From the IMG/VR virus record IMGVR_UViG_3300045988_090087: a DNA stretch of 64,000 bases, one strand, 5' to 3'. This DNA is from a virus. Both the position numbers and the translations under genes were made by a program. Under the pieces are notes generated by a model. The model was not told the origin of the DNA, made no database searches, and saw nothing but the letters and a program-made list of their open reading frames with translations. Positions 3 through 54,169 of this stretch are shown here, in pieces; position 1 is the first letter of the stretch; each line of letters starts with the position of its first letter.

Positions 3-356
3 TCTAGAAAAAGTCCTATATTAAATGCTATAGTAAATGGTAAATCAGTAAATAACAGACTAAATTTCTTAGCTAATAATAATAGAACTGATGAATATGG
101 TTCTATAGCTGGAGGAAGAATAATTATATAGGCGGGTAAAGAAGTTCGTTTAGTTTCCGGAAGTATAGATAATATTAGAGATGAGATAGAAGCTATGAAA
201 TCTAGAAACAATGTTAAAACAGTAGATTTATATACTTTAGATAATGGTACTTATCATTCAGGATTAAGAACTTTTGATAAAATATTTACTAGAGATGACT
301 TACTAAAATATGATGCTCAAAATACGGGCGGAGGAAATTTTTTATATATAAAATAA
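3..356 (+). CDS. 3' end of a gene starting upstream of the window (unknown function); open only if TAG at 129-131 is read through
   Basis: Frame 3 is open from the window edge to TAA 354-356 apart from one TAG. A hairpin terminator follows directly. Confidence 0.45.
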
Positions 357-880: not shown

Positions 881-918
881 GTTCTCCCACAAGGATTCGA
901 ACCCTGGCTAAAAGATTT

Positions 919-1921
919 CATTTTAACACCTCTGTAGAGGATTAGACTATCACATCCAGTCCTAGGACCAGTCTCTTTATTTAGTCGTTCACGCTGTATT
1001 TAAACTTGCGCCCTGTCACTTTATACTAAGTATATACGCTTCCAAGTCGATTAAAAGAGATTCTACTTAAAGATTATGGATTATCCTTTAAGCATCCAAT
1101 ATTTCAAAGTAATAGTTTTTCCAAAGAATGCCAACATTTCTATTTAGAGTTGCTCTACAAGTTTTCATTAATTTAGTAGTTACTAAATTATTATCCATTA
1201 ACCATTGACAACATTCTGCTATACACCCAAATCTTCTTATTTCATTATGAGAAGAGTCATATTGTATAACATACTTTTGATTTTGTTTAGTTAATCCAGC
1301 TTCTGATAAAACTTGTTTTACTGCTTTAGGATTTAAATTATATCTATCAGCAACTTTCTTTTGATTTTTTAATTCTATATAAGAACTAATAATTAAATTC
1401 TTTAATTCATCAGAAAGTTCGTATTTAGATTCTACTTTTTGTTTATTTTTAGCACCATAAGTAGTGGTTTGACTATGACAATTAGGACACAAAAATCTTA
1501 GATTTTCTATTCTATTATCATTATTTACACCATTAATATGGTCTAATTCTAGAGATAAAGTCTTACCCTGCCATTCTGTAATTCCACATATTGCACATGT
1601 ATAAGGAAGTAATTTGTTTCTTAATATATAGCTTCTTAATATATTACGTGCGTGTTTTGAATTTTCACATAATAATTTAGAAGCATCTATTTCTTTCTTT
1701 TCATTACAGTCGACTATAGCTGATTTGCCTCTAAAATCTTTACCTGATAAATTTAAATCTTGCATTCTTTGTTTAACTTGTGAATATCCCCAACTGTTTC
1801 CAACAGTAGTATATCCAAGTTTAAATAAAACTTCTGAGATATTCAGACTTGACTTAACTAAGTCTGAAAACTCTTTATCCGTAAGTTTATAAATTTTATT
1901 TTCCATACTTTAAAATTTTTA
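919..1921 (-). mobile_element. Group I-type intron in the tRNA anticodon loop, carrying an HNH ORF
   Basis: The 5' exon ends in U and the intron ends in G (919). The 3' core has an R-like AAAGAGACTGG, an S-like GTGATAGTCTAA (AGACT/AGTCT can pair as P7) and a terminal CCTC-TACA-GAGG hairpin. Confidence 0.55.
1088..1906 (-). CDS. HNH homing endonuclease (intron-encoded), no in-frame TAG
   Basis: CAICG...LELDHINGVNNDNRIENLRFLCPNCH (HNH/zinc motif). It lies entirely inside the tRNA intron. Confidence 0.85.
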   Translation of the reverse strand: MENKIYKLTDKEFSDLVKSSLNISEVLFKLGYTTVGNSWGYSQVKQRMQDLNLSGKDFRGKSAIVDCNEKKEIDASKLLCENSKHARNILRSYILRNKLLPYTCAICGITEWQGKTLSLELDHINGVNNDNRIENLRFLCPNCHSQTTTYGAKNKQKVESKYELSDELKNLIISSYIELKNQKKVADRYNLNPKAVKQVLSEAGLTKQNQKYVIQYDSSHNEIRRFGCIAECCQWLMDNNLVTTKLMKTCRATLNRNVGILWKNYYFEILDA

Positions 1922-1965
1922 AGAGTCTTCTGTGCTAACCATTACACCATAGGAGAGTAATATCT

Positions 1966-2187
1966 TTACATATGACTACTAACACTAAAAGAATTTTCAG
2001 TAGAAGTAGTTTTATTATTATTAGTGTCTATTGAGATAAACCCATTATGTGGTATATCTTTTAAACCTTTTAAAACCATATTATCTATAGTTAATTTAGG
2101 TCCATTAATAATATTTACTAGTTCTATTAATTGAGATACTGTAAGATTAGGAACTATCTTATTAATTTTTTGTAATGTTTCTATCAT
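1966..2187 (-). CDS. Hypothetical protein
   Basis: ORF track; it ends 10 nt upstream of the tRNA 5' end and tiles with its minus-strand neighbours. Confidence 0.5.
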   Translation of the reverse strand: MIETLQKINKIVPNLTVSQLIELVNIINGPKLTIDNMVLKGLKDIPHNGFISIDTNNNKTTSTENSFSVSSHM

Positions 2188-11155: not shown

Positions 11156-11236
11156 ACGGAGTTAGCTTAATGGCTAAAGCACCTCATTTTCACAATTCAT
11201 AGAGAGGTTATATTGGTTCGAATCCTTTACTCCGTA
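11156..11236 (+). tRNA. tRNA-like gene with about 7 extra nt next to the anticodon loop (TTTTCAC, Glu-type loop)
   Basis: Acceptor ACGGAGT/ACTCCGT; D arm GCTT-AATGGCTA-AAGC. The central region CCTCA-TTTTCAC-AATTCAT-AGAGG is too long, and the T stem has U-U mismatches. Confidence 0.45.
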
Positions 11237-11665: not shown

Positions 11666-11748
11666 ACGGTAGTAGCTCAGTGGCTAGAGCATCTCTTTTA
11701 TAATAGGTCATTTCGAGAAGGTCATTGGTTCGAATCCTTTCTACCGTA
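11666..11748 (+). tRNA. tRNA-like gene with about 10 extra nt next to the anticodon loop (TTTATAA, anticodon TAT / Ile-AUA type)
   Basis: Acceptor ACGGTAG/CTACCGT; D arm GCTC-AGTGGCTA-GAGC; then TCTCT-TTTATAA-TAGGTCATTT-CGAGA-AGGTC. Paralog of 11156..11236. A 7-bp leader hairpin sits at 11637-11661. Confidence 0.45.
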
Positions 11749-11856
11749 CAAATTTAATTTGATATATTGTTAGTGTGTTTGGATAAATCCTGACTAATAA
11801 ATTTATTAGTATAGGTAGGTGTTACCACTATTCTCCTTTATAGAAATGTGGGCTAT

Positions 11857-12120: not shown

Positions 12121-12192
12121 GGCACTATCGTCTAGCTGGTTAGGACGTAACTTTTCAAAGTTAAAAGGCGATTTCGAGCATCGCTAGTGCTA
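12121..12192 (+). tRNA. tRNA-Glu-like (TTC) with irregular anticodon arm
   Basis: Glu-type D arm TCGTCTAGCTGGTTAGGAC. The anticodon arm is TAAC-TTTTCAAA-GTTA (4 bp with an 8-nt loop, or 5 bp with a 6-nt loop). T arm GCGAT-TTCGAGC-ATCGC. Confidence 0.6.
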
Positions 12193-12271
12193 CTCTTCCG
12201 TATTTAAAAAACTAATACGATTAATGTTTAAAATATAAAGTCAGCGGACTTTATAACGTTAAAGAGTTGTT

Positions 12272-14434: not shown

Positions 14435-14506
14435 AAATGTGTAGCTCAATAGCTAGAGCGTCTATCGTAGAGTAGAAGGTTGGCAGTTCAAATCTGTCCG
14501 CATTTC
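14435..14506 (+). tRNA. tRNA-like gene, anticodon undetermined (irregular anticodon arm)
   Basis: Acceptor AAATGTG/CGCATTT; D arm GCTC-AATAGCTA-GAGC; T arm GGCAG-TTCAAAT-CTGTC. The central part folds only as TCTA-TCGTAGAG-TAGA. Confidence 0.5.
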
Positions 14507-14548
14507 CTTTTTCTATCATTATTTTAATTTTTAATTTATTAAAAATAA

Positions 14549-16521: not shown

Positions 16522-16740
16522 ATGCCTTGGTTTATTCAATTAATAATGGCTATATTTATGATAATACTTTATATTGCTATATTTATGGAAATGTATACTA
16601 GTTCCAGTTATTCAGATAAACGAATATTGTATAGTTTTGGAATAGGAACGTATAGTACACTTTTATTGTTATTTTGGATATTACAATATAGTATTCATCA
16701 TACAATCATCTATTGGAGAATTATAGAATTATTTAAATAA
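16522..16740 (+). CDS. Small integral membrane protein
   Basis: Two hydrophobic segments. Confidence 0.55.
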   Translation: MPWFIQLIMAIFMIILYIAIFMEMYTSSSYSDKRILYSFGIGTYSTLLLLFWILQYSIHHTIIYWRIIELFK

Positions 16741-17054
16741 TGATTATACGTATATATGATTATAATGGTAAAGGTAAGTTAGTTAAAATACCAGATAACT
16801 GTGAATATATTGAATTTGATATACTTAATGGTGATATGGTATTGACTTATCCTATACAAGTTGATGCTTGTGATGAACCTCGCAAATGGATAGAGAATGA
16901 GGGTCACTATAAATTAACTAAAGATAAGTTTAATAAGTTATGGCATTTAAAAAGGGATGTTTTAACATTTCAAAGAGTCATCTGTTTAGCTAGAAACAGA
17001 ACTTTTAGAGAAGAAGATTATTCTCCTCTACTTAATTTATTTCTTAAATGGTAG
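16740..17054 (+). CDS. Hypothetical protein
   Basis: ORF track; the TAG stop has an in-frame TAA 3 codons later. Confidence 0.55.
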   Translation: MIIRIYDYNGKGKLVKIPDNCEYIEFDILNGDMVLTYPIQVDACDEPRKWIENEGHYKLTKDKFNKLWHLKRDVLTFQRVICLARNRTFREEDYSPLLNLFLKW

Positions 17055-17788: not shown

Positions 17789-17826
17789 AGGAGTATATTA
17801 GCTAATTAGTTAGTATACTCCTTTTT
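17789..17826 (+). terminator. Rho-independent terminator after the tRNA-like pair
   Basis: AGGAGTATA..TATACTCCT followed by TTTT. Confidence 0.6.
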
Positions 17827-17854
17827 ATGTTTAAGTATTTTAAAGATTAAGTTT

Positions 17855-18310
17855 ATGTGTTTTATTAAGACAAAAGAAAGTAAATTATTAATAGCAAAAA
17901 GAGATATTATAGTTTATAAAGTAGGAATATATGCAGATGTACAAATGTTTACACCATACTTTATGACTGATTATTGTTATAGAAGAAAAGCACTTGCTAA
18001 TCAAACTGTAACATTTAATAAAAACTATATTAACATAGGTTTACATAGTGTATTATCTTTAGAAGGTTGTTATGCATCATTAATTGGCTGTATACGTTTT
18101 TTCTCTAATGGAAGTCGTATTCCTTTTATTGTTGTAAATGTTTTATGTAATCATGTTTATATAGGAAAATTTATTATTCCAAGAGATAGTTTATATATGG
18201 TTAATTCTCATAATGAAGTAGTATCTAATAGGCTTATTTATACAGGTGAATTTAAATACATTAATAAGAATGAAAATTTTAATATTAAAGATTTATGGAA
18301 AGAAAAATAG
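17855..18310 (+). CDS. 'MC' family paralog 4
   Basis: MCFIK...DIIVYK...GLHSV...FIIPRDSLYMVNSHNEVVSNRLIYTGEF. Confidence 0.7.
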   Translation: MCFIKTKESKLLIAKRDIIVYKVGIYADVQMFTPYFMTDYCYRRKALANQTVTFNKNYINIGLHSVLSLEGCYASLIGCIRFFSNGSRIPFIVVNVLCNHVYIGKFIIPRDSLYMVNSHNEVVSNRLIYTGEFKYINKNENFNIKDLWKEK

Positions 18311-19447: not shown

Positions 19448-19460
19448 AATTAAGTAGATT

Positions 19461-20447
19461 ATGGAACAGAAACTTAATATAGCAGAAATCTTGAAGAATA
19501 AACCAAGGGGTACTAAATTGTATTCTATGATTCATGGTAAATGTAGTTCTGAAGCAGTAACAGATGAAATTTTTAAAATAAACTTCTGTACTTCAAAATT
19601 TGGTTTAACACAATCTGGAGAATGTACCTTAATTAAATTTGGTAATATGTATGATGGCGGAGAATGTATTATCTTCCCATCTAAGGAAATGCGTGATTGG
19701 TCTAAGTTCCAATGGGAAAAAGGTGATGTACTGATAAGTAATGATGGTGGCACAGAGGTTATCTTTGACGAATGGTACGATGATACTTATACAAGTTTTT
19801 ATTGTAAGCATTACCTTAACAGTGAAGATAAGAATAAAATCGTATATTACGAAGAATTCTTATGCACAACTGAAAGATATTCCCTTGAAGATAAGGATAT
19901 TGCTCAGACCTACATTAACACCATAGAGAAGCGTTTGGATGGCAAGCTCAATCTTGAAACTTTGGAGATTGAAAAGCAACCAAAGTTCAAGGATGGAGAT
20001 ATACTTAGTTGTGATGAAAACTCATTTACAAAACATACAACTTTAATACTTCATAAGGATGAAAATATAACAGAATCAATAGTTTCTTTGATTAGACATA
20101 AGAAACTTGTTGAAACTAATGTACCTATAGATAATTTTCTTCTTTCAAGACTTTATCCTGCTAGAGAAGATGAAAAGAAAGAACTTTTTGATGCCCTTGC
20201 AAAGGAAGGAAAAGCTTGGGATGCTGAGAAGAAAATAATTGTTAACTTGAAGCATAAGTGCGAGTTTAAGCCATTCGATAAAGTATTGGGACGAAATGAG
20301 AAAGATGATGTATGGGAAGCTGACCTCTTTTCTCATTATAGAGAAGAATCACAATATCCTTTTCGGTGTATCGGATGTAGTCGTAAGTATTGTATTCCTT
20401 ACGAAGGTAATGAACATCTTCTAGGCATAAGAAATAATCCTGAATAG
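19461..20447 (+). CDS. Hypothetical protein (328 aa)
   Basis: ORF track; TAG stop. Confidence 0.65.
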   Translation: MEQKLNIAEILKNKPRGTKLYSMIHGKCSSEAVTDEIFKINFCTSKFGLTQSGECTLIKFGNMYDGGECIIFPSKEMRDWSKFQWEKGDVLISNDGGTEVIFDEWYDDTYTSFYCKHYLNSEDKNKIVYYEEFLCTTERYSLEDKDIAQTYINTIEKRLDGKLNLETLEIEKQPKFKDGDILSCDENSFTKHTTLILHKDENITESIVSLIRHKKLVETNVPIDNFLLSRLYPAREDEKKELFDALAKEGKAWDAEKKIIVNLKHKCEFKPFDKVLGRNEKDDVWEADLFSHYREESQYPFRCIGCSRKYCIPYEGNEHLLGIRNNPE

Positions 20448-28403: not shown

Positions 28404-29714
28404 AAAATTTAAGCAAATTCAGTAAGCTTAAATTTTTAAAAATTTTATATTTATTTGGATTTAATAAAATTTCATATATATTATAGTAATATTAATTTTA
28501 ACTATATGAATATGAAATTTGTAATTAATGAAGAATTAGGAGAAAAAATTAAGACTTTGTACTTAATAGATGGATTAAGTTGTACTAAGATTGGTAAAGA
28601 GGTTGGAATTTCTACTTCTACTATAAGTTCATTTCTAAAAAGAAATGGAATTGAAGTAGTTAATAAACAAAACAAATTATTATTTGATCTAGATAAAGAT
28701 ATTATTCCTAAATATAAGCAAGGGATAAGTTTATCTAAATTAGCTAAAGAGTATCATACTTCTATCCAAACTTTGTCTAGAAAATTAAAAGCTAAAGGGA
28801 TTGAAATAATCAATCATCAAAATGAAACTAAATTTAATGAGCATATCTTCGATGTTATAGATACTGAAGAAAAAGCTTATTGGTTAGGGTTTATATTTGC
28901 TGATGGTTATATTTCATCAAGAGATAACGGTTTTGAACTATCTTTAAAAGGCTCTGATATTGAACACTTACATAAATTTAATAAGTTTATGGAGCATAAT
29001 AAAGATAATGTCAAATTAGGGGAAGTTAAAAATAAAGATAAAACTTTTTTAAGGTGTCGCTGGGGAATAGTCAATAAGCACTTATGGAATACTCTAAATA
29101 ATTTAGGATGTACTCCAAGAAAAAGTTTAACTCTTCAATTTCCTAATATTTCTGAAGAATTAGAAATTCCTTTTATTAGAGGATACTTTGACGGTGATGG
29201 TTGTTTAAGTTACTATTAGAAGACAAAAATTTTACCAAAAGCTTCATTTTTAGGAACTAGACAATTTTTAGTAAAGATACAAGCAATATTAAATAATTTT
29301 AATATAAAAAGTTCTTTAGTAAAAGATACACGAATGGAAAATACTCTAGTATTAAATGTATCTTCAACAAATTCTTCAGATTTTTTAGACTTAGTATATA
29401 ATAATAGTTCCATTTATTTAGACAGAAAATATAAAAGATATAAAATTTTTAAAACTTGCCGTTCTAAACAGGAATGTTTAGAATTATTAGCGGGTGAAAA
29501 CGGGGAAGGCTGTGATGCTAATCCCGTGGTAAATGAAGATAGTAACGAATCTTCATCACTGTAACGCGTAGAAGTTGAAACTCTTATAAGAGAATATAAT
29601 ACTTCCAAGAGCGCCCGCTCTCCCAATCATTTGAATGGAGAAAAAGGTACGCTGAGCTATAACAAATAAGAAGTTATAGAAATATAGATAAAAAGCTATA
29701 TGATAACAATACTG
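28404..29714 (+). mobile_element. Group I-type intron (1311 nt) with a LAGLIDADG ORF, inserted in the Walker A codons
   Basis: The exon ends GGT (U) and the intron ends CTG (G). Joining restores GGT-AAA-ACA-GTT (G-K-T-V). The 3' ~120 nt is homologous to the helicase intron. Confidence 0.65.
28506..29564 (+). CDS. LAGLIDADG homing endonuclease with two N-terminal HTH modules; one in-frame TAG (29217-29219)
   Basis: YWLGFIFADGYI and IRGYFDGDGCL motifs. ORFs 28455..29219 and 29334..29564 share a frame that is open across the TAG, and the C-terminal part continues the LAGLIDADG fold pattern. Confidence 0.7.
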
Positions 29715-36648: not shown

Positions 36649-37392
36649 ATGAACATTAAAGAACTTACAAATAAAGAATTAATAAAATTATATAAGGAGC
36701 ATAAATGTTCTTTATAGGCTATAGAAAAAGATTTAGGATTAACTAAAAATTAGGCAGGAAGATTATTCAGAGCAAGAAATATTGATTATAAAAGTTTGAA
36801 AAATCAATATTTAATAGATTTAGAAATGGATTATTATAACCATCCAAATGTTTGTAAATATTGTGGAAATCCTTTACCTTACAAATATAAGGGAAGTTTT
36901 TGTAATCAATCTTGTGCGGCTTCCTATAATAACATTTAGAGAAGGACTTCAGAACATAAAAATAAAGGACCCCAAAAAAATTATCATTGTTTAAACTGTG
37001 GTAAAGAACTCAAATATGTTTCTGGAAATTATATGAAATATTGTTCTGCAAAATGTCAGACTGAATATCAACATAAAGAGTATATTAAACGATGGAAAAA
37101 TGGTGAAGAGACAGGTGTTACTGGTAAAACTGATATATCTACCCATATACGTAAATATTTAAAAGAAAAATTTAATAATTCTTGCCAAAAATGTGGGTGG
37201 AATTAGATAAATTATTTCACAGGTTTAGTACCATTACAAATCCATCATATTGATGGAGATTGTTTAAATAATAAAGAAAAAAATCTTTAGTTACTATGTC
37301 CTAATTGTCACGCTTTAACCGAGAATTATGGCAGTAGAAACAAAAATTCAAAGAGAACTTCTAGAAGAATACATTATGAAAATAACTATTGA
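36649..37392 (+). CDS. Free-standing HNH homing endonuclease with five in-frame TAG codons
   Basis: A 247-codon frame whose only interruptions are TAGs at 36715, 36751, 36937, 37204 and 37288. Paralog of 1088..1906: CQKCGW..LQIHHIDGDCLNNKEKNL-TAG-LLCPNCHA. Confidence 0.65.
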
Positions 37393-46561: not shown

Positions 46562-46893
46562 TGAAACTTTTAGATAGATTAATTTTAATATTAATTTTTA
46601 TTACTATTATAGGAGCTACTATCTTTTTATATAAAGGGTTTAAATCTACTACTGTAATGCCTACAGATACCTTAGAAAGAAAAATAGACTCATTAAATAG
46701 TAAGAAAAATTCTATTAAAGTTGATATCAATAAGTGTGATACTGCTATCTACTATAATAAAACTATCTATGTTAAAGAGAAGGACAATATTATTAAGCAG
46801 TCTCCTGATAGCGACATGCAGTTTTTCACAAACTACATTCAAGAAGTCGGGAGAAAACTTCTTATTGACACCGTATCAATTAAAAATAACTAA
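46561..46893 (+). CDS. N-terminally membrane-anchored protein (i-spanin-like topology)
   Basis: TM segment LILILIFITIIGATIFL followed by a soluble domain. Confidence 0.55.
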   Translation: MKLLDRLILILIFITIIGATIFLYKGFKSTTVMPTDTLERKIDSLNSKKNSIKVDINKCDTAIYYNKTIYVKEKDNIIKQSPDSDMQFFTNYIQEVGRKLLIDTVSIKNN

Positions 46894-47134
46894 TCTTATT
46901 TTTAATGAGCATAAATATTTACTAGTAAATGATAGTCTACAAAAAATTCAAATAAATAACTACAAATCTTTAGTAAATACGCTGGATAGTACGCTAACAT
47001 ATAAAAATTATCAAATAAAGATTCAATCTGATAAAAATAATGAATTGTATATACAAAATAAAAAATTATCAAAATTGAATTATTTATTTGGAGGTATAAG
47101 TATATTATCTATAATATGTGCTCTAATACATTAG
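46769..47134 (+). CDS. Lipoprotein encoded in an overlapping frame (o-spanin-like arrangement)
   Basis: MLKRRTILLSSLLIAT-C lipobox; it starts inside 46561..46893 in another frame; C-terminal hydrophobic segment; TAG stop. Confidence 0.45.
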   Translation: MLKRRTILLSSLLIATCSFSQTTFKKSGENFLLTPYQLKITNLIFNEHKYLLVNDSLQKIQINNYKSLVNTLDSTLTYKNYQIKIQSDKNNELYIQNKKLSKLNYLFGGISILSIICALIH

Positions 47135-47697: not shown

Positions 47698-48684
47698 ATG
47701 ACAACAGTTTTAGGTGATAAACTCAATCAAGCTTTTGAAGCTAAGAATAATGATGTAGAAACATTTCTCTGGAAAGGTTCCAGAAAAATTGTAGATGGTG
47801 AACGCATTCAGTCTTCCATGAAAATGGTAGATATGACTGAAGAAGAATTACGTAAAGCATATAAACATTGTGAATCAATGCTTTATAGTGACAACTATGA
47901 AAATCCTGGACGACGAGTTTTGTTGGAACAGATTGAAGATCAAAGAACTCGCTGTAATGCTGAGTTGTTCTTAATTTGGCTATTGTACCCAGGTGAAGGT
48001 AGTACTAGACAAGGTATTGTAAGAACTAGTTTCTTTAATATGCTCAATCAGCAGATTACTGCTCAGGCAGAACAGTTTGCTAAAGAGAATGCAGAAAGTG
48101 GTGAGGGCGAGACAAATGTTAGTGCTATTGCAGAGACTCTCTTTAAAGAGTGGACTCTTAATGATATTATGAATAGTGATGAAGATTCATTTACCATGTT
48201 TGCTTCATTACCATTGTATATCGTTAGAGAAGCTTGTTTATCTGCTTTAGGTAAATGTGTCCGTAAACACATTACTCTTACATTTATTACTGAGCTTGGA
48301 TTGTGGTTTACACGTTCTGAGTTATTAGAATTAAATAAAAAAGACGAGAATGGTCGTTTAGTAGATAGAATTAAGCAAGTTGCTGAACTTCTAAATATTA
48401 AATTGAGAGACCCTAAGAATCCTGAAGACAGAAAAGGTCTTGTTTTAAAAATTGATGATAGAAAAGGCTTAACTCTAAAAGAGTTTAGCGCAATGCTTAC
48501 CTTCCGTAAGGATAAATATGATAAGCGTTATAATGATCTGACTAAAGTACAATTGGAAACCTTAAGAGATAAAGTTTTACTGCATCTCGAAAATAAGGTT
48601 AGATGGCAAGCTTCAGAGTGGGAGAAGCGTATTAAACAAATCAAAGCAGTAGCTGATTATAATGGCTACAAACTCTCTGATTGA
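47698..48684 (+). CDS. Hypothetical protein (328 aa), upstream of the helicase
   Basis: ORF track. Confidence 0.65.
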   Translation: MTTVLGDKLNQAFEAKNNDVETFLWKGSRKIVDGERIQSSMKMVDMTEEELRKAYKHCESMLYSDNYENPGRRVLLEQIEDQRTRCNAELFLIWLLYPGEGSTRQGIVRTSFFNMLNQQITAQAEQFAKENAESGEGETNVSAIAETLFKEWTLNDIMNSDEDSFTMFASLPLYIVREACLSALGKCVRKHITLTFITELGLWFTRSELLELNKKDENGRLVDRIKQVAELLNIKLRDPKNPEDRKGLVLKIDDRKGLTLKEFSAMLTFRKDKYDKRYNDLTKVQLETLRDKVLLHLENKVRWQASEWEKRIKQIKAVADYNGYKLSD

Positions 48685-48793
48685 AGGAGAACTATTTCAT
48701 AAAATCACTAGAGATGAACGACAAGAAGAGTGTCGTAAAAAATGGATAAAAAATCGTTGTGTGGGGACAATAGTTGCGTCTACTGGCTTTGGT
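48662..48793 (+). CDS. SF2 (DEAH) helicase, exon 1 (ends ...ASTGFG, inside motif I)
   Basis: Motif I is broken after GFG. The rest of the ORF (to 48967) does not resemble a helicase. Confidence 0.6.
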
Positions 48794-49142
48794 ACTGTAA
48801 AAGCGGGTCATATACCTGTTAATTACGATGCCGTTCCGATAGAGGAATCTTCGGAATTATCATCGAGCAAAATCGGTAGAAGCCCTATAGAGGGTAATAC
48901 CGAGGTAATAGAAGAAATTAAAGAATCTTCTACACCGTACAGCATAGAGAATGAAACTAATAAATAGTCTAGTTAATAGCTAGACTATTTTTATTAGAAT
49001 ATAATTTCTCCACGAGTGTTCGATACCCCAACTGAAATAAGTGGGTAAAAATTTATGCGGGACTTACTAGTAATAGTAAGAAGTATAGATAAAAAACTAT
49101 ACGATAACAAAATCGAAATCCAGAATAGGACTAAACTGTATT
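48794..49142 (+). mobile_element. ORF-less intron-like insertion (~349 nt) in the Walker A codons of the helicase; boundaries approximate
   Basis: Removing it restores GGT-AAA-ACA-GTG (GFGKTVLKHF...LIIVPT). Blocks 48996-49005 and 49084-49110 match the AAA+ intron. No G precedes the inferred 3' junction. Confidence 0.5.
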
Positions 49143-53386: not shown

Positions 53387-53398
53387 TAATATAGCAAT

Positions 53399-54169
53399 AT
53401 GAATTTAAATTTTGGTGGTCTTGGTGATATTAATCCTACAAGTAAGAAAGGTCTTCGTCCTTATGGAATTTATCTCGTTCAGTTAAAAAGTGTAGAAACT
53501 AAGGAAGGTCAAGGTAAACAAGACCCTAGTACAACTTGGAAATCTCTGGTACTTCATTTTGAAGGAGAACAAGGAACTTATCAAGAATCATTGTTTTATC
53601 CTAATGAAAGTTCTGCTAAAAGATATGAGGGTAAGAGAAAGGATTCTAAGGGTGTAGAATTCCCATATGTACTTCCTTCAGCATTTGAACAGCTTAAAGG
53701 TTTTATGCTGCATATTATAACAGTAGTAGGTGGTGATAAAGCTAAAGAATTGTTTGTAACTAAAGCTCCTACTTGTAAGAGTACTGACCAATTCATGCAG
53801 CTTTTCCAGGCAGTATTGACTAAGTATTGTATGAATAAAAACTTTTATTTAAAGCTTAGCGGTCGTAAGGAAAAGAAAAAGGATGAAAAGGGAATCTCAA
53901 AGGAAACTGGCAATGTATTTGCTAAGATTCCTGATATTGGAGCTATTAATAGTGATGGACAGTTCTATATCCGTGATAATTTTGCTAGCTTAGAGGAAGA
54001 TAAATTGTCATTCTCTAGTTATGAGATTAAGCAGAAAGAGGATATGGAGAAGCGTAAGCCTACTGCTCCCATGCCAGCAGCTGATTCAGAAGAGGCTAAA
54101 TCTATCGACTCTACTGAAGGCAAGGAGGCTCAAGATGAAGACTTCGATGCTATGCTGGCAGATATGTAG
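53399..54169 (+). CDS. Putative single-stranded DNA-binding protein
   Basis: Position in the replication module and an acidic C-terminal tail (EAQDEDFDAMLADM). Stop is TAG-TAA in tandem. Confidence 0.45.
   Translation: MNLNFGGLGDINPTSKKGLRPYGIYLVQLKSVETKEGQGKQDPSTTWKSLVLHFEGEQGTYQESLFYPNESSAKRYEGKRKDSKGVEFPYVLPSAFEQLKGFMLHIITVVGGDKAKELFVTKAPTCKSTDQFMQLFQAVLTKYCMNKNFYLKLSGRKEKKKDEKGISKETGNVFAKIPDIGAINSDGQFYIRDNFASLEEDKLSFSSYEIKQKEDMEKRKPTAPMPAADSEEAKSIDSTEGKEAQDEDFDAMLADM

Follow-up and report, generated by a model that had tools for sequence, protein, structure and literature searches.

Group I introns that interrupt the anticodon loop of a tRNA gene are known from cellular genomes, in cyanobacterial and plastid tRNA-Leu(UAA), cyanobacterial tRNA-fMet, Azoarcus tRNA-Ile and Agrobacterium tRNA-Arg; one of the cyanobacterial tRNA-fMet introns encodes the endonuclease I-Ssp6803I, and exon pairing within the anticodon stem helps splicing (Zaug et al. 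1993; this and the other references as cited in PMC3984707). Phage group I introns with homing endonucleases have been described in protein genes, such as td, nrdB and nrdD of T4 and the DNA polymerase genes of SPO1 and Bastille (PMC3984707), and the same 2014 review places all phage introns known to that date in protein-coding genes, despite the many tRNA genes that phages carry. Recoding with phage suppressor tRNAs is described for crAss-like and Lak phages (PMC7886860; bioRxiv 10.1101/2021.08.26.457843; PMC12386605); the crAss-like papers report reassignment of TAG and TGA, suppressor tRNAs and protein genes dense in group I introns, mention no intron in a suppressor tRNA, and describe, as an unexplained observation, recoded genomes "without detectable suppressor tRNA" (PMC7886860; PMC12386605). 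Lak megaphage tRNAs contain short "enigmatic" introns, found by running tRNAscan in eukaryote mode on oversized tRNAs and presented as previously unreported in phage tRNAs; the available text of that paper names Tyr, Thr and other tRNAs and mentions no suppressor case (PMC6784885). Here we describe a locus at positions 882 to 1956 of a 64,000-nucleotide stretch of viral DNA (IMG/VR record IMGVR_UViG_3300045988_090087; this whole stretch is called the window below), which is very probably a phage amber-suppressor tRNA(CUA) gene with a mobile, HNH-carrying group I-type intron between U35 and A36.

Two half-tRNAs on the minus strand, 1956->1922 and 918->882, flank 1003 nucleotides (nt) that hold an intact HNH endonuclease open reading frame (ORF), just as the original prediction had read them from the letters of the window. 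The 5′ exon (TCTCCTATGGTGTAATGGTTAGCACAGAAGACTCT) contains the 5′ strand of the acceptor stem, the D arm, the 5′ strand of the anticodon stem and the loop residues C32, U33, C34 and U35, and it ends in ...GAAGACTCT, with U1922 as its last base. The 3′ exon (AAATCTTTTAGCCAGGGTTCGAATCCTTGTGGGAGAA, running AAATCTTT...GGGAGAA) supplies A36, A37 and A38, the 3′ strand of the anticodon stem, the variable loop, the T arm with its TTCGAAT loop and the 3′ strand of the acceptor stem, and ends with the discriminator base A882, CCA not being encoded. When joined in silico, the halves form the clean 72-nt cloverleaf that had been anticipated, with a 7-nt anticodon loop carrying CUA, and ARAGORN calls this 72-mer tRNA(cta). 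With a slash marking the joint, the spliced junction reads GAAGACTCT/AAATCTTTTAG (core GAAGACUCU-AAAUCUUUU), and the unspliced junctions read CTCT/TAAAAATT and AAAATG/AAATC. In the unspliced window, neither ARAGORN nor the Rfam tRNA model detected a tRNA at 1956-882, and 12-13 plus-strand tRNAs were reported elsewhere in the window. No clear parent emerged when the suppressor was compared pairwise with the other tRNAs of the window.

The fold alone is insufficient to fix the anticodon, because ARAGORN accepts other joins of the halves as tRNAs as well (Lys CUU, Ser UGA/CGA). What settles the junction is the set of intronless alleles. Scanned for the exact pattern GAAGACTCTWAATCTTT, IMG/VR returned 45 loci, about 25 of which carry the same tRNA uninterrupted, always with CTCTAAA. 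In four of them (L008, L010, L015 and L044) the uninterrupted tRNA matches the spliced product at 100% identity, and the flanks of the window (TAATAC... and ...CATGATA) recur in L044 and L030. Since the intron begins with T where the 3′ exon begins with A, and ends with G where the 5′ exon ends with T, the boundaries of the insertion cannot slide, and the intron is exactly 1921->919. The alleles thus fix the same junction as the original prediction, which had ended the 5′ exon at CTCT and the intron at G919 and had read the anticodon as CUA; the join CTCTT+AA, with a CUU (Lys) anticodon, which it had named as the outcome that would overturn this reading, is excluded. A broader alternative, in which some other join yields a sense tRNA, for example CUCUU+AA (CUU/Lys) or CU+UGAAA (UGA/Ser), can appeal to the same permissiveness of ARAGORN, and we give it virtually no credence: CUCUAAA is found in every intronless allele, none has CTCTTAA in this tRNA backbone, the intron would then end in A or U, and 26 of 26 tRNAs reconstructed from the intron family described below give CUA.

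Three more contigs (L047, L048 and L049) proved to carry the same 1003-nt insert when the 3′ junction was scanned for. Near-identical phages, some with identical flanks, are polymorphic for the insertion, about 25 contigs being intronless, 3 having the same intron and 1 having a different one. This last contig, from a sibling phage with the same flanks (L046; IMGVR_UViG_3300045988_105372), carries at 700-922 an ORF-less 223-nt intron at exactly the same tRNA(CUA) site, with a canonical P1 (CUCU/GGAG, U opposite G) and a full-length, sub-threshold alignment to the Rfam group I model (16.9 bits, E = 0.094). Two unrelated introns share one insertion point. A scan of IMG/VR for further introns of the second type found the L046 one alone. 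The arrangement of half-tRNAs around an intron is real and not a product of chance.

The site is shared by a whole intron family. An IMG/VR search with the HNH ORF returned 26 loci, and every full-length one has a tRNA 5′ half ending in CTCT, the ORF, a conserved RNA of about 170 nt and a tRNA 3′ half starting with AA. Both searches combined, with the HNH ORF and with the core, the family has at least 35 distinct members, all located, as far as the host genes could be reconstructed, in tRNA(CUA) genes with different stems, between CUCU and AA(A/C); the 5′ exon ends in CUCU in all members checked. All 26 distinct tRNAs reconstructed from the family have CUCUAA(A/C) in the anticodon loop, and ARAGORN calls cta for those that it recognises. 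One member lies in a complete, classified crAss-like (Crassvirales) genome, Bohxovirus sp. PV686213.1, in which the ORF is annotated as "hypothetical protein" and the tRNA is not annotated. Across the 26 distinct family tRNAs, the acceptor and anticodon stems, to each of which both exons contribute a strand, are 97.1% paired, with compensatory changes in 11 of 12 pairs, compared with 37-59% pairing in slid controls. Together with the conserved ribozyme core, the exon-exon helices argue that the joined tRNA is what selection sees.

To the 3′ side of the ORF, the helices P2, P3, P4, P5, P6/P6a, P7 (crossing P3) and P8 were named and scored on a 30-sequence alignment with the window as its first sequence (Table 1). 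Standard pairs occupy 98.9% of the 1140 cells, and this share falls to 35-46% once the 3′ partners are shifted by 1-3 columns. Both members have changed in 21 of the 38 pairs, and the observed covariation score was not reached in any of 500 shuffles. The order of the elements, namely P3 5′ strand, P4-P6, P7 5′ strand, P3 3′ strand, P8 and P7 3′ strand, is that of the group I pseudoknot. P7 is paired in 100% of cells, with an A-U pair replaced by G-C in 8 sequences, and its invariant G986-C945 is presumably the guanosine-binding pair. The motifs that contain the two strands of P7, GUGAACGACUAAAU and GGAUGUGAUAGUCU, resemble what we take to be the textbook R/S consensus and the corresponding elements of T4 td. 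P9, which was seen by reading, covaries by eye in the clade of the window (CCAUU/AAUGG, CCAC/GUGG, CCUUU/AAAGG, CCG/CGG) and is absent in the second clade of the family (L057-L071 and relatives).

On one helix the original prediction erred: its R-like element AGAGACT in fact consists of bases of the P3 3′ strand and continues into P8, the true 5′ strand of P7 being GACUA at 986-982, and the P7 pairing that it had proposed, AGACU/AGUCU, shows no compensatory change and conflicts with both P3 and P8. Two further candidates were discarded. A helix bridging the ORF (UUAAAG before it, CUUUAA after it) gave way to the local hairpin P2, for which covariation is seen in all members, and a protein-spliced bulge-helix-bulge tRNA intron, which is short and usually follows position 37, does not fit an insert of 1003 nt between positions 35 and 36 that contains a ribozyme core and an ORF.

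The core belongs to a common class. The motif GGCGCAAG...GCGTGANNGACTRAA, written for the class as GGCGCAAG...GCGUGANNGACURAA...GAUAGUC, is shared by more than 120 IMG/VR phage contigs among the matches listed, and in many of these (in the L076-L195 range) the introns interrupt apparent protein-coding frames. In the window itself, GCGTGANNGACTRAA occurs only once and the core motif is not repeated. When the core and two same-class introns were compared with GenBank phages by BLASTN, almost nothing apart from MT835539.1 was found, so that the class could not be linked to an experimentally spliced intron.

The position of the guide sequence is suggested by these relatives. The clearest of them (L185, L194, L116 and L079), which lie in apparent protein-coding frames and have no ORF at the 5′ end, have the same P2 loop AUAAUNCAUAAU and the layout exon ...AUCCCU, AAAAUGAGU, GGGGAU, four bases and P2, that is, a canonical P1 with a U.G wobble just 5′ of P2. 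The homologous spot in the tRNA intron family is occupied by an invariant UUGGAUG, which also forms part of the last HNH codons, and because it sits at the guide position of the relatives we propose UUGGA as the internal guide. In P1, G1097 would form a wobble with U1922, and G1096-C1923 and A1095-U1924 would follow; U1098-A918 and U1099-A917 would form P10. Given this guide position, the P1 loop would contain the HNH ORF. The Leu codon that ends in the wobble G reads TTG in 34 of 35 members, against a share of only 12.6% for TTG among the Leu codons of these ORFs, and this bias hints at a constraint on the wobble G at the RNA level. The leader between the 5′ splice site and the start codon is variable in length and sequence across the family and contains no segment able to pair with the exon CUCU. 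Two other candidates for P1 were rejected: the exon GAAGACUCU is complementary over 9 bp to AGAGUUUUC, which lies about 50 nt inside the ORF, but this pairing places an A opposite the splice-site U, is not conserved in relatives and reflects chance or coding, and the GGA of AUGGAR at the HNH start codon is not available as a guide in the many family members that start ATGACAAA.

Taken together, the predicted layout of the intron is a 15-nt leader, an 816-nt HNH ORF that would form a loop separating the 5′ splice site from the guide, a compact core from P2 to P9 and a terminal G, and splicing of such an RNA would presumably occur and be autocatalytic. Along the standard group I pathway, the guide UUGGA (1099-1095) would pair with the exon UCU, placing U1922 opposite G1097 as a wobble, and an external guanosine bound at the P7 pair G986-C945 would attack after U1922. 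G919 would then take the place of this guanosine in the binding site, and the 3′-OH of U1922 would attack after G919, joining the exons as CUCUAAA and so creating the anticodon CUA. Normal processing of the 5′ and 3′ ends and CCA addition would follow, and the mature tRNA would decode thousands of in-frame UAGs in late and structural genes. By cutting the uninterrupted tRNA gene of co-infecting relatives, the HNH enzyme presumably spreads the intron, which would make the element a homing one. As to the amino acid, U1-A72 would fit a glutamine tRNA by the identity rules as we take them to be, and the suppressor probably carries Gln by analogy with other recoded phages. Glutamine is the usual reassignment in such phages (PMC7886860).

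Instead of being fully autocatalytic, splicing might also need help from a protein, which could be a host factor or the HNH product in the role of a maturase. The very short P1, the small, AT-rich core and the roughly 800 nt looped out between splice site and guide would all be accommodated by such a helper; we know of no phage-intron HNH protein that acts as a maturase, and we consider this version quite unlikely.

The genome in which the split gene is found depends on the decoding of TAG. Two GenBank scaffolds of human faecal origin, MT835539.1 (54.9 kb) and MT835492.1 (121.6 kb), are colinear with the window at 92-98% identity and together amount to about 176 kb. Genome size, GC content and lifestyle features would suit a "Zeta crAss-like" phage; a conserved 677-aa protein gave no taxonomic information. 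ORF coverage rises from 0.335 under the standard code to 0.834 with TAG as a sense codon in L196, from 0.351 to 0.96 in L198 and from 0.302 to 0.917 in L199. In many 5-kb bins coverage is 0.0-0.3 under the standard code and 1.0 with TAG as sense, and about 100 kb is recoded, comprising the region beyond the left edge of the window and the far part of MT835492.1. One ORF of 2071 codons contains 64 in-frame TAGs, and the products of the recoded region resemble, by reading, structural proteins. No other CUA tRNA was detected by ARAGORN in the window, MT835539.1 or MT835492.1, and a stem-loop search detected no CUA anticodon stem-loop in a tRNA-like context in the window or in the approximately 176 kb. 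The late genes of this phage are thus apparently unreadable without the tRNA(CUA).

Most of the window is a block of replication, nucleotide-metabolism and tRNA genes that avoids in-frame TAG. The clear exceptions are three: an HNH gene at 36649-37392 (+), whose HNH motif runs on through its five TAGs; a LAGLIDADG gene at 28506-29564 (+), which has a single TAG; and the fragment bordering the recoded block, the whole gene of which has 8 in-frame TAGs in MT835539.1. The earlier view that the window holds several TAG-dependent genes thus stands in that some exist and has to be narrowed in that they are few, namely two homing-endonuclease genes and the fragment 3-356. Eight long ORFs of the window end in TAG, and six of these have a back-up stop within 13 codons. 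The six, in which an in-frame stop lies 0-13 codons past the TAG on the plus strand, are 16737-17054, 17810-18310, 19458-20447, 46697-47134, 48653-48967 and 53390-54169, and the back-up stops look like insurance against read-through by the phage's own suppressor.

Several points weigh against the reading of the locus as a functional, intron-split suppressor gene. The Rfam group I model RF00028 gave no match on the intron, whole or core, at the gathering score or at E <= 10; a match on 919-1921 had been expected in the original prediction, which counted its absence as adverse, and on that score the result goes against it. The candidate P1 has only 3 bp, with 2 further P10 pairs, and no supporting pairs on the intron side; it cannot covary, because its exon bases are fixed by the anticodon loop; the conserved GGAUG is coding sequence as well, and related sequences are not independent observations. 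P1 is the weakest link of the argument. The terminal intron base is G in 30 of 35 family members and A in 5, and the A ending (...UUUAACA/AACCC) is seen, with the P7 G-C pair unchanged, in L081, L113, L146, L148, L174 and Bohxovirus PV686213.1 (L201 2440-2460). Because of these, not every member can follow the textbook second step; either splicing has been lost in the A-ending copies or their second step is unusual. Part of the covariation between the exons could be due not to long residence of the intron but to its recent homing into tRNA genes already divergent at the time. Lastly, UAG may be decoded by a suppressor encoded by the host.

The first of these points loses weight on inspection of the controls. 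RF00028 also gave no match at the gathering score in 20 loci with the core motif, and even E <= 1 brought up none in three loci where the introns of the class are complete and canonical (with a U.G P1); since the model misses clear introns of this class as well, its negative is uninformative here. Apart from the weak L046 alignment, the Rfam group I scans overall gave no match. A rival reading would be a dead gene, in which an unspliced homing cassette has inactivated the tRNA and UAG is read by a host suppressor or by a divergent phage tRNA missed by the tools. The lack of an Rfam group I match, the weak P1, the family members without a terminal G and the presence in the window of several odd tRNAs with irregular anticodon loops would all suit it. 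However, strong compensatory evolution in a group I layout 3′ of the ORF is unexpected for a non-functional spacer, complementarity between the tRNA halves persists through 26 distinct variants, the insert is bounded exactly by a preceding U and a final G, and no other CUA anticodon loop was found in the approximately 176 kb, and a dead gene is therefore highly improbable.

The ORF of the intron shows a Pfam HNH match (PF01844, E = 1.1e-5) and a PHROG match (phrog_10822, HNH endonuclease, E = 2.7e-42), and a sequence search of the PDB with the protein gave no match. It contains no in-frame TAG in the window, as had been remarked earlier together with the five TAGs of the HNH gene at 36649, and both observations were borne out. 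Across the family the ORF is intact in 35 of 35 members (270-304 codons), with zero in-frame TAG in 10,258 codons in total, and because the ORF is TAG-free, the nuclease can be made without the suppressor whose gene holds it. The 3′ end of the HNH ORF extends over the proposed guide and into the 5′ strand of P2, which contains the HNH stop codon, so that translation of the ORF and folding of the ribozyme should exclude each other on one transcript. In the second clade (e.g. L057 2310-2400), the ORF stays open across P2-P6 as far as the UGA in the conserved J6/7 (GCGUGA), where it ends, and because it runs through these helices about 90 nt are both coding and ribozyme core.

Such an overlap would be in keeping with splicing as a timer, in which slow or conditional splicing delays the suppressor and sets the time of late-gene translation, and translation of the HNH ORF competes with splicing. 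Besides the overlap of the 3′ end of the ORF with the guide and P2, and its extension over P2-P6 to the J6/7 UGA in the second clade, this idea has in its favour that the suppressor is the only CUA tRNA found, that the late genes are rich in TAG, that the HNH ORF is TAG-free and that recoding has been proposed to delay late-gene translation (bioRxiv 10.1101/2021.08.26.457843). About 25 close relatives do without the intron, however, so the intron is dispensable for the life cycle, and patchy presence and absence is the pattern of a selfish homing element; a timer is arguable but unlikely. The preferred reading remains that of a mobile group I-type intron in the suppressor gene, with homing by the HNH protein as its probable means of spread.

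The coordinates of the features are collected in Table 1.

Table 1. Features of the split tRNA(CUA) locus and of the left edge of the window; the pairing figures refer to the 30-sequence alignment.
Feature	Position	Strand	Description
C-terminal part of TAG-containing gene	3..356	+	edge of recoded block
tRNA(CUA) 3′ exon	918->882	-	37 nt; read from sequence; ARAGORN on joined halves; intronless alleles
Terminal G (omega-G)	919	-	read from sequence
Intron, group I type	1921->919	-	1003 nt; starts U1921, ends G919; bounded by intronless alleles
P9 hairpin	929..940	-	CCUC-UACA-GAGG; seen by reading
P7 3′ strand	945..949	-	UAGUC in GGAUGUGAUAGUCU (J8/7-P7 "S")
P8 hairpin	956..971	-	CUGGUC-CUAG-GACUGG; 99.4% of cells paired, 2 compensatory pairs
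P3 3′ strand	972..978	-	AAAGAGA; crosses P7
P7 5′ strand	982..986	-	GACUA in GUGAACGACUAAAU (J6/7-P7 "R"); partner 949-945
P4-P5-P6 domain	991..1046	-	alignment counts
P6	1011-1008/994-991	-	invariant
P6a	1005-1004/997-996	-	covaries
P5	1039-1037/1020-1018, window-specific extension	-	90% paired, 2 compensatory pairs
P4	1046-1043/1015-1012	-	100% paired, 2 compensatory pairs
P3 5′ strand	1054..1060	-	UCUCUUU; partner 978-972; 6/7 pairs compensatory, 99% of cells paired
P2 hairpin	1066..1092	-	CUUAAAG (1092-1086), loop GAUAAUCCAUAAU, CUUUAAG (1072-1066); 7/7 pairs compensatory, 99.5% of cells paired
HNH endonuclease ORF	1906->1088	-	272 aa + TAA stop, intact; 816-nt coding; Pfam and PHROG matches
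Candidate internal guide	1095..1099	-	5′-UUGGA-3′; proposed from position in relatives and codon bias
Leader, 5′ splice site to HNH start codon	1907..1921	-	15 nt, UAAAAAUUUUAAAGU
tRNA(CUA) 5′ exon	1956->1922	-	35 nt; read from sequence; intronless alleles identical

Further observations concern the surroundings of the gene and other tRNAs. The split tRNA gene is packed between ORFs (878-881 and 1957-1968, minus strand), with the stop codon of the upstream ORF 9 nt before the first base of the tRNA and an ATG (880-878) one nucleotide past its discriminator base, and because of this tight packing the tRNA is probably cut out of a polycistronic transcript. Among the family members, L064-L071, L137 and L085 have 3′ exons with an unusual T arm, GUGGG-GGCAGCA-CCUAC, which lacks the TTCGA loop, and these suppressor tRNAs are mostly not recognised by ARAGORN even after in silico splicing, L137 being the exception. 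On the plus strand of the window, two tRNA-like genes at 11156-11236 and 11666-11749 score 49-52 bits (Rfam) and have approximately 10-11 extra bases in the anticodon loop; ARAGORN in intron mode calls the former tRNA-Stop(tta) with an 11-nt intron and the latter Ile(tat) with a 10-nt intron, and in MT835539.1 it calls a tRNA-Stop(tta), presumed to be the same gene as that at 11156, without intron mode. The two genes may carry short Lak-like introns, or a UAA suppressor may be present. For the genes at 12121-12193 and 14435-14507 (+), ARAGORN draws 6-nt anticodon loops with the ambiguous anticodons "tc" and "ta". Inside the heavily recoded block, a 647-codon ORF with a LAGLIDADG-like segment (L196 19809-21752; MT835539.1 24808-26751) contains no TAG, and its protein probably contains an intein.

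If the reading proposed here is true, a group I intron is present in a phage tRNA gene, a place where the 2014 review knew none (PMC3984707). No post-2014 report of a group I intron in a phage tRNA gene was found in the searchable literature, nor any earlier report of an intron in a suppressor tRNA; that literature is incomplete, so a prior report is possible. As the interrupted gene is that of the code-changing tRNA, ribozyme activity would be a precondition for reading about half of the genome. Since both ARAGORN and Rfam miss the split gene, such a gene offers a checkable explanation for recoded genomes without a detectable suppressor tRNA, and the annotated complete Crassvirales genome PV686213.1 carries the same split gene unannotated. 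The finding is useful for annotation in this respect, and also because the Rfam group I model misses a large class of phage introns. With at least 35 variants and an unrelated second intron at the same site, the family is a natural system for interference between splicing and translation of a homing endonuclease. A wider claim, that in a set of gut phages (crAss-like phages and large relatives) a ribozyme runs the switch from the standard to the TAG-sense code, its folding competing with translation of the TAG-free nuclease gene and so setting when and how strongly the late genes are read, and that this explains at least some of the suppressor-less recoded genomes, is a tentative extension that we think unlikely.

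Compared with the described systems, the locus is a combination of known kinds (tRNA group I introns, phage homing introns and phage recoding) and not a new category, although the combination is unexpected. Like the cellular tRNA introns, it has a group I-type intron in the anticodon loop, with an anticodon that exists only after splicing, a 5′ exon ending in U and an intron ending in G, and like the tRNA-fMet intron, which shows that a homing endonuclease aimed at the tRNA gene can be borne in this way, it carries an endonuclease ORF. The insertion point differs, being between 35 and 36 here and, as we presume, between 34 and 35 in tRNA-Leu. Unlike the cellular introns, it resides in a phage, the tRNA is a nonsense suppressor needed by a recoded genome, and the HNH enzyme is placed between the 5′ splice site and the guide; its nearest relatives, in a comparison that covered phage sequences, are phage introns in apparent protein-coding frames.

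With the introns of phage protein genes it shares a ribozyme core with a looped-out endonuclease ORF and a patchy distribution among close relatives, and with many metagenomic phage introns it shares a common core motif, whereas its target is a tRNA gene. The genome resembles those of recoded crAss-like and Lak phages in that TAG is sense mainly in late and structural genes, that the phage has a tRNA(CUA) of its own and that it is a large, AT-rich gut genome rich in introns and inteins; the published suppressors are found by ordinary tRNA finders, whereas the one described here is hidden by its intron. As in Lak, the introns lie in tRNA genes of alternatively coded gut phages, and the junctions follow from alleles with and without the insert. 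The intron at this locus differs from the Lak tRNA introns, as the available text of PMC6784885 describes them, in having a ribozyme core and an endonuclease ORF.

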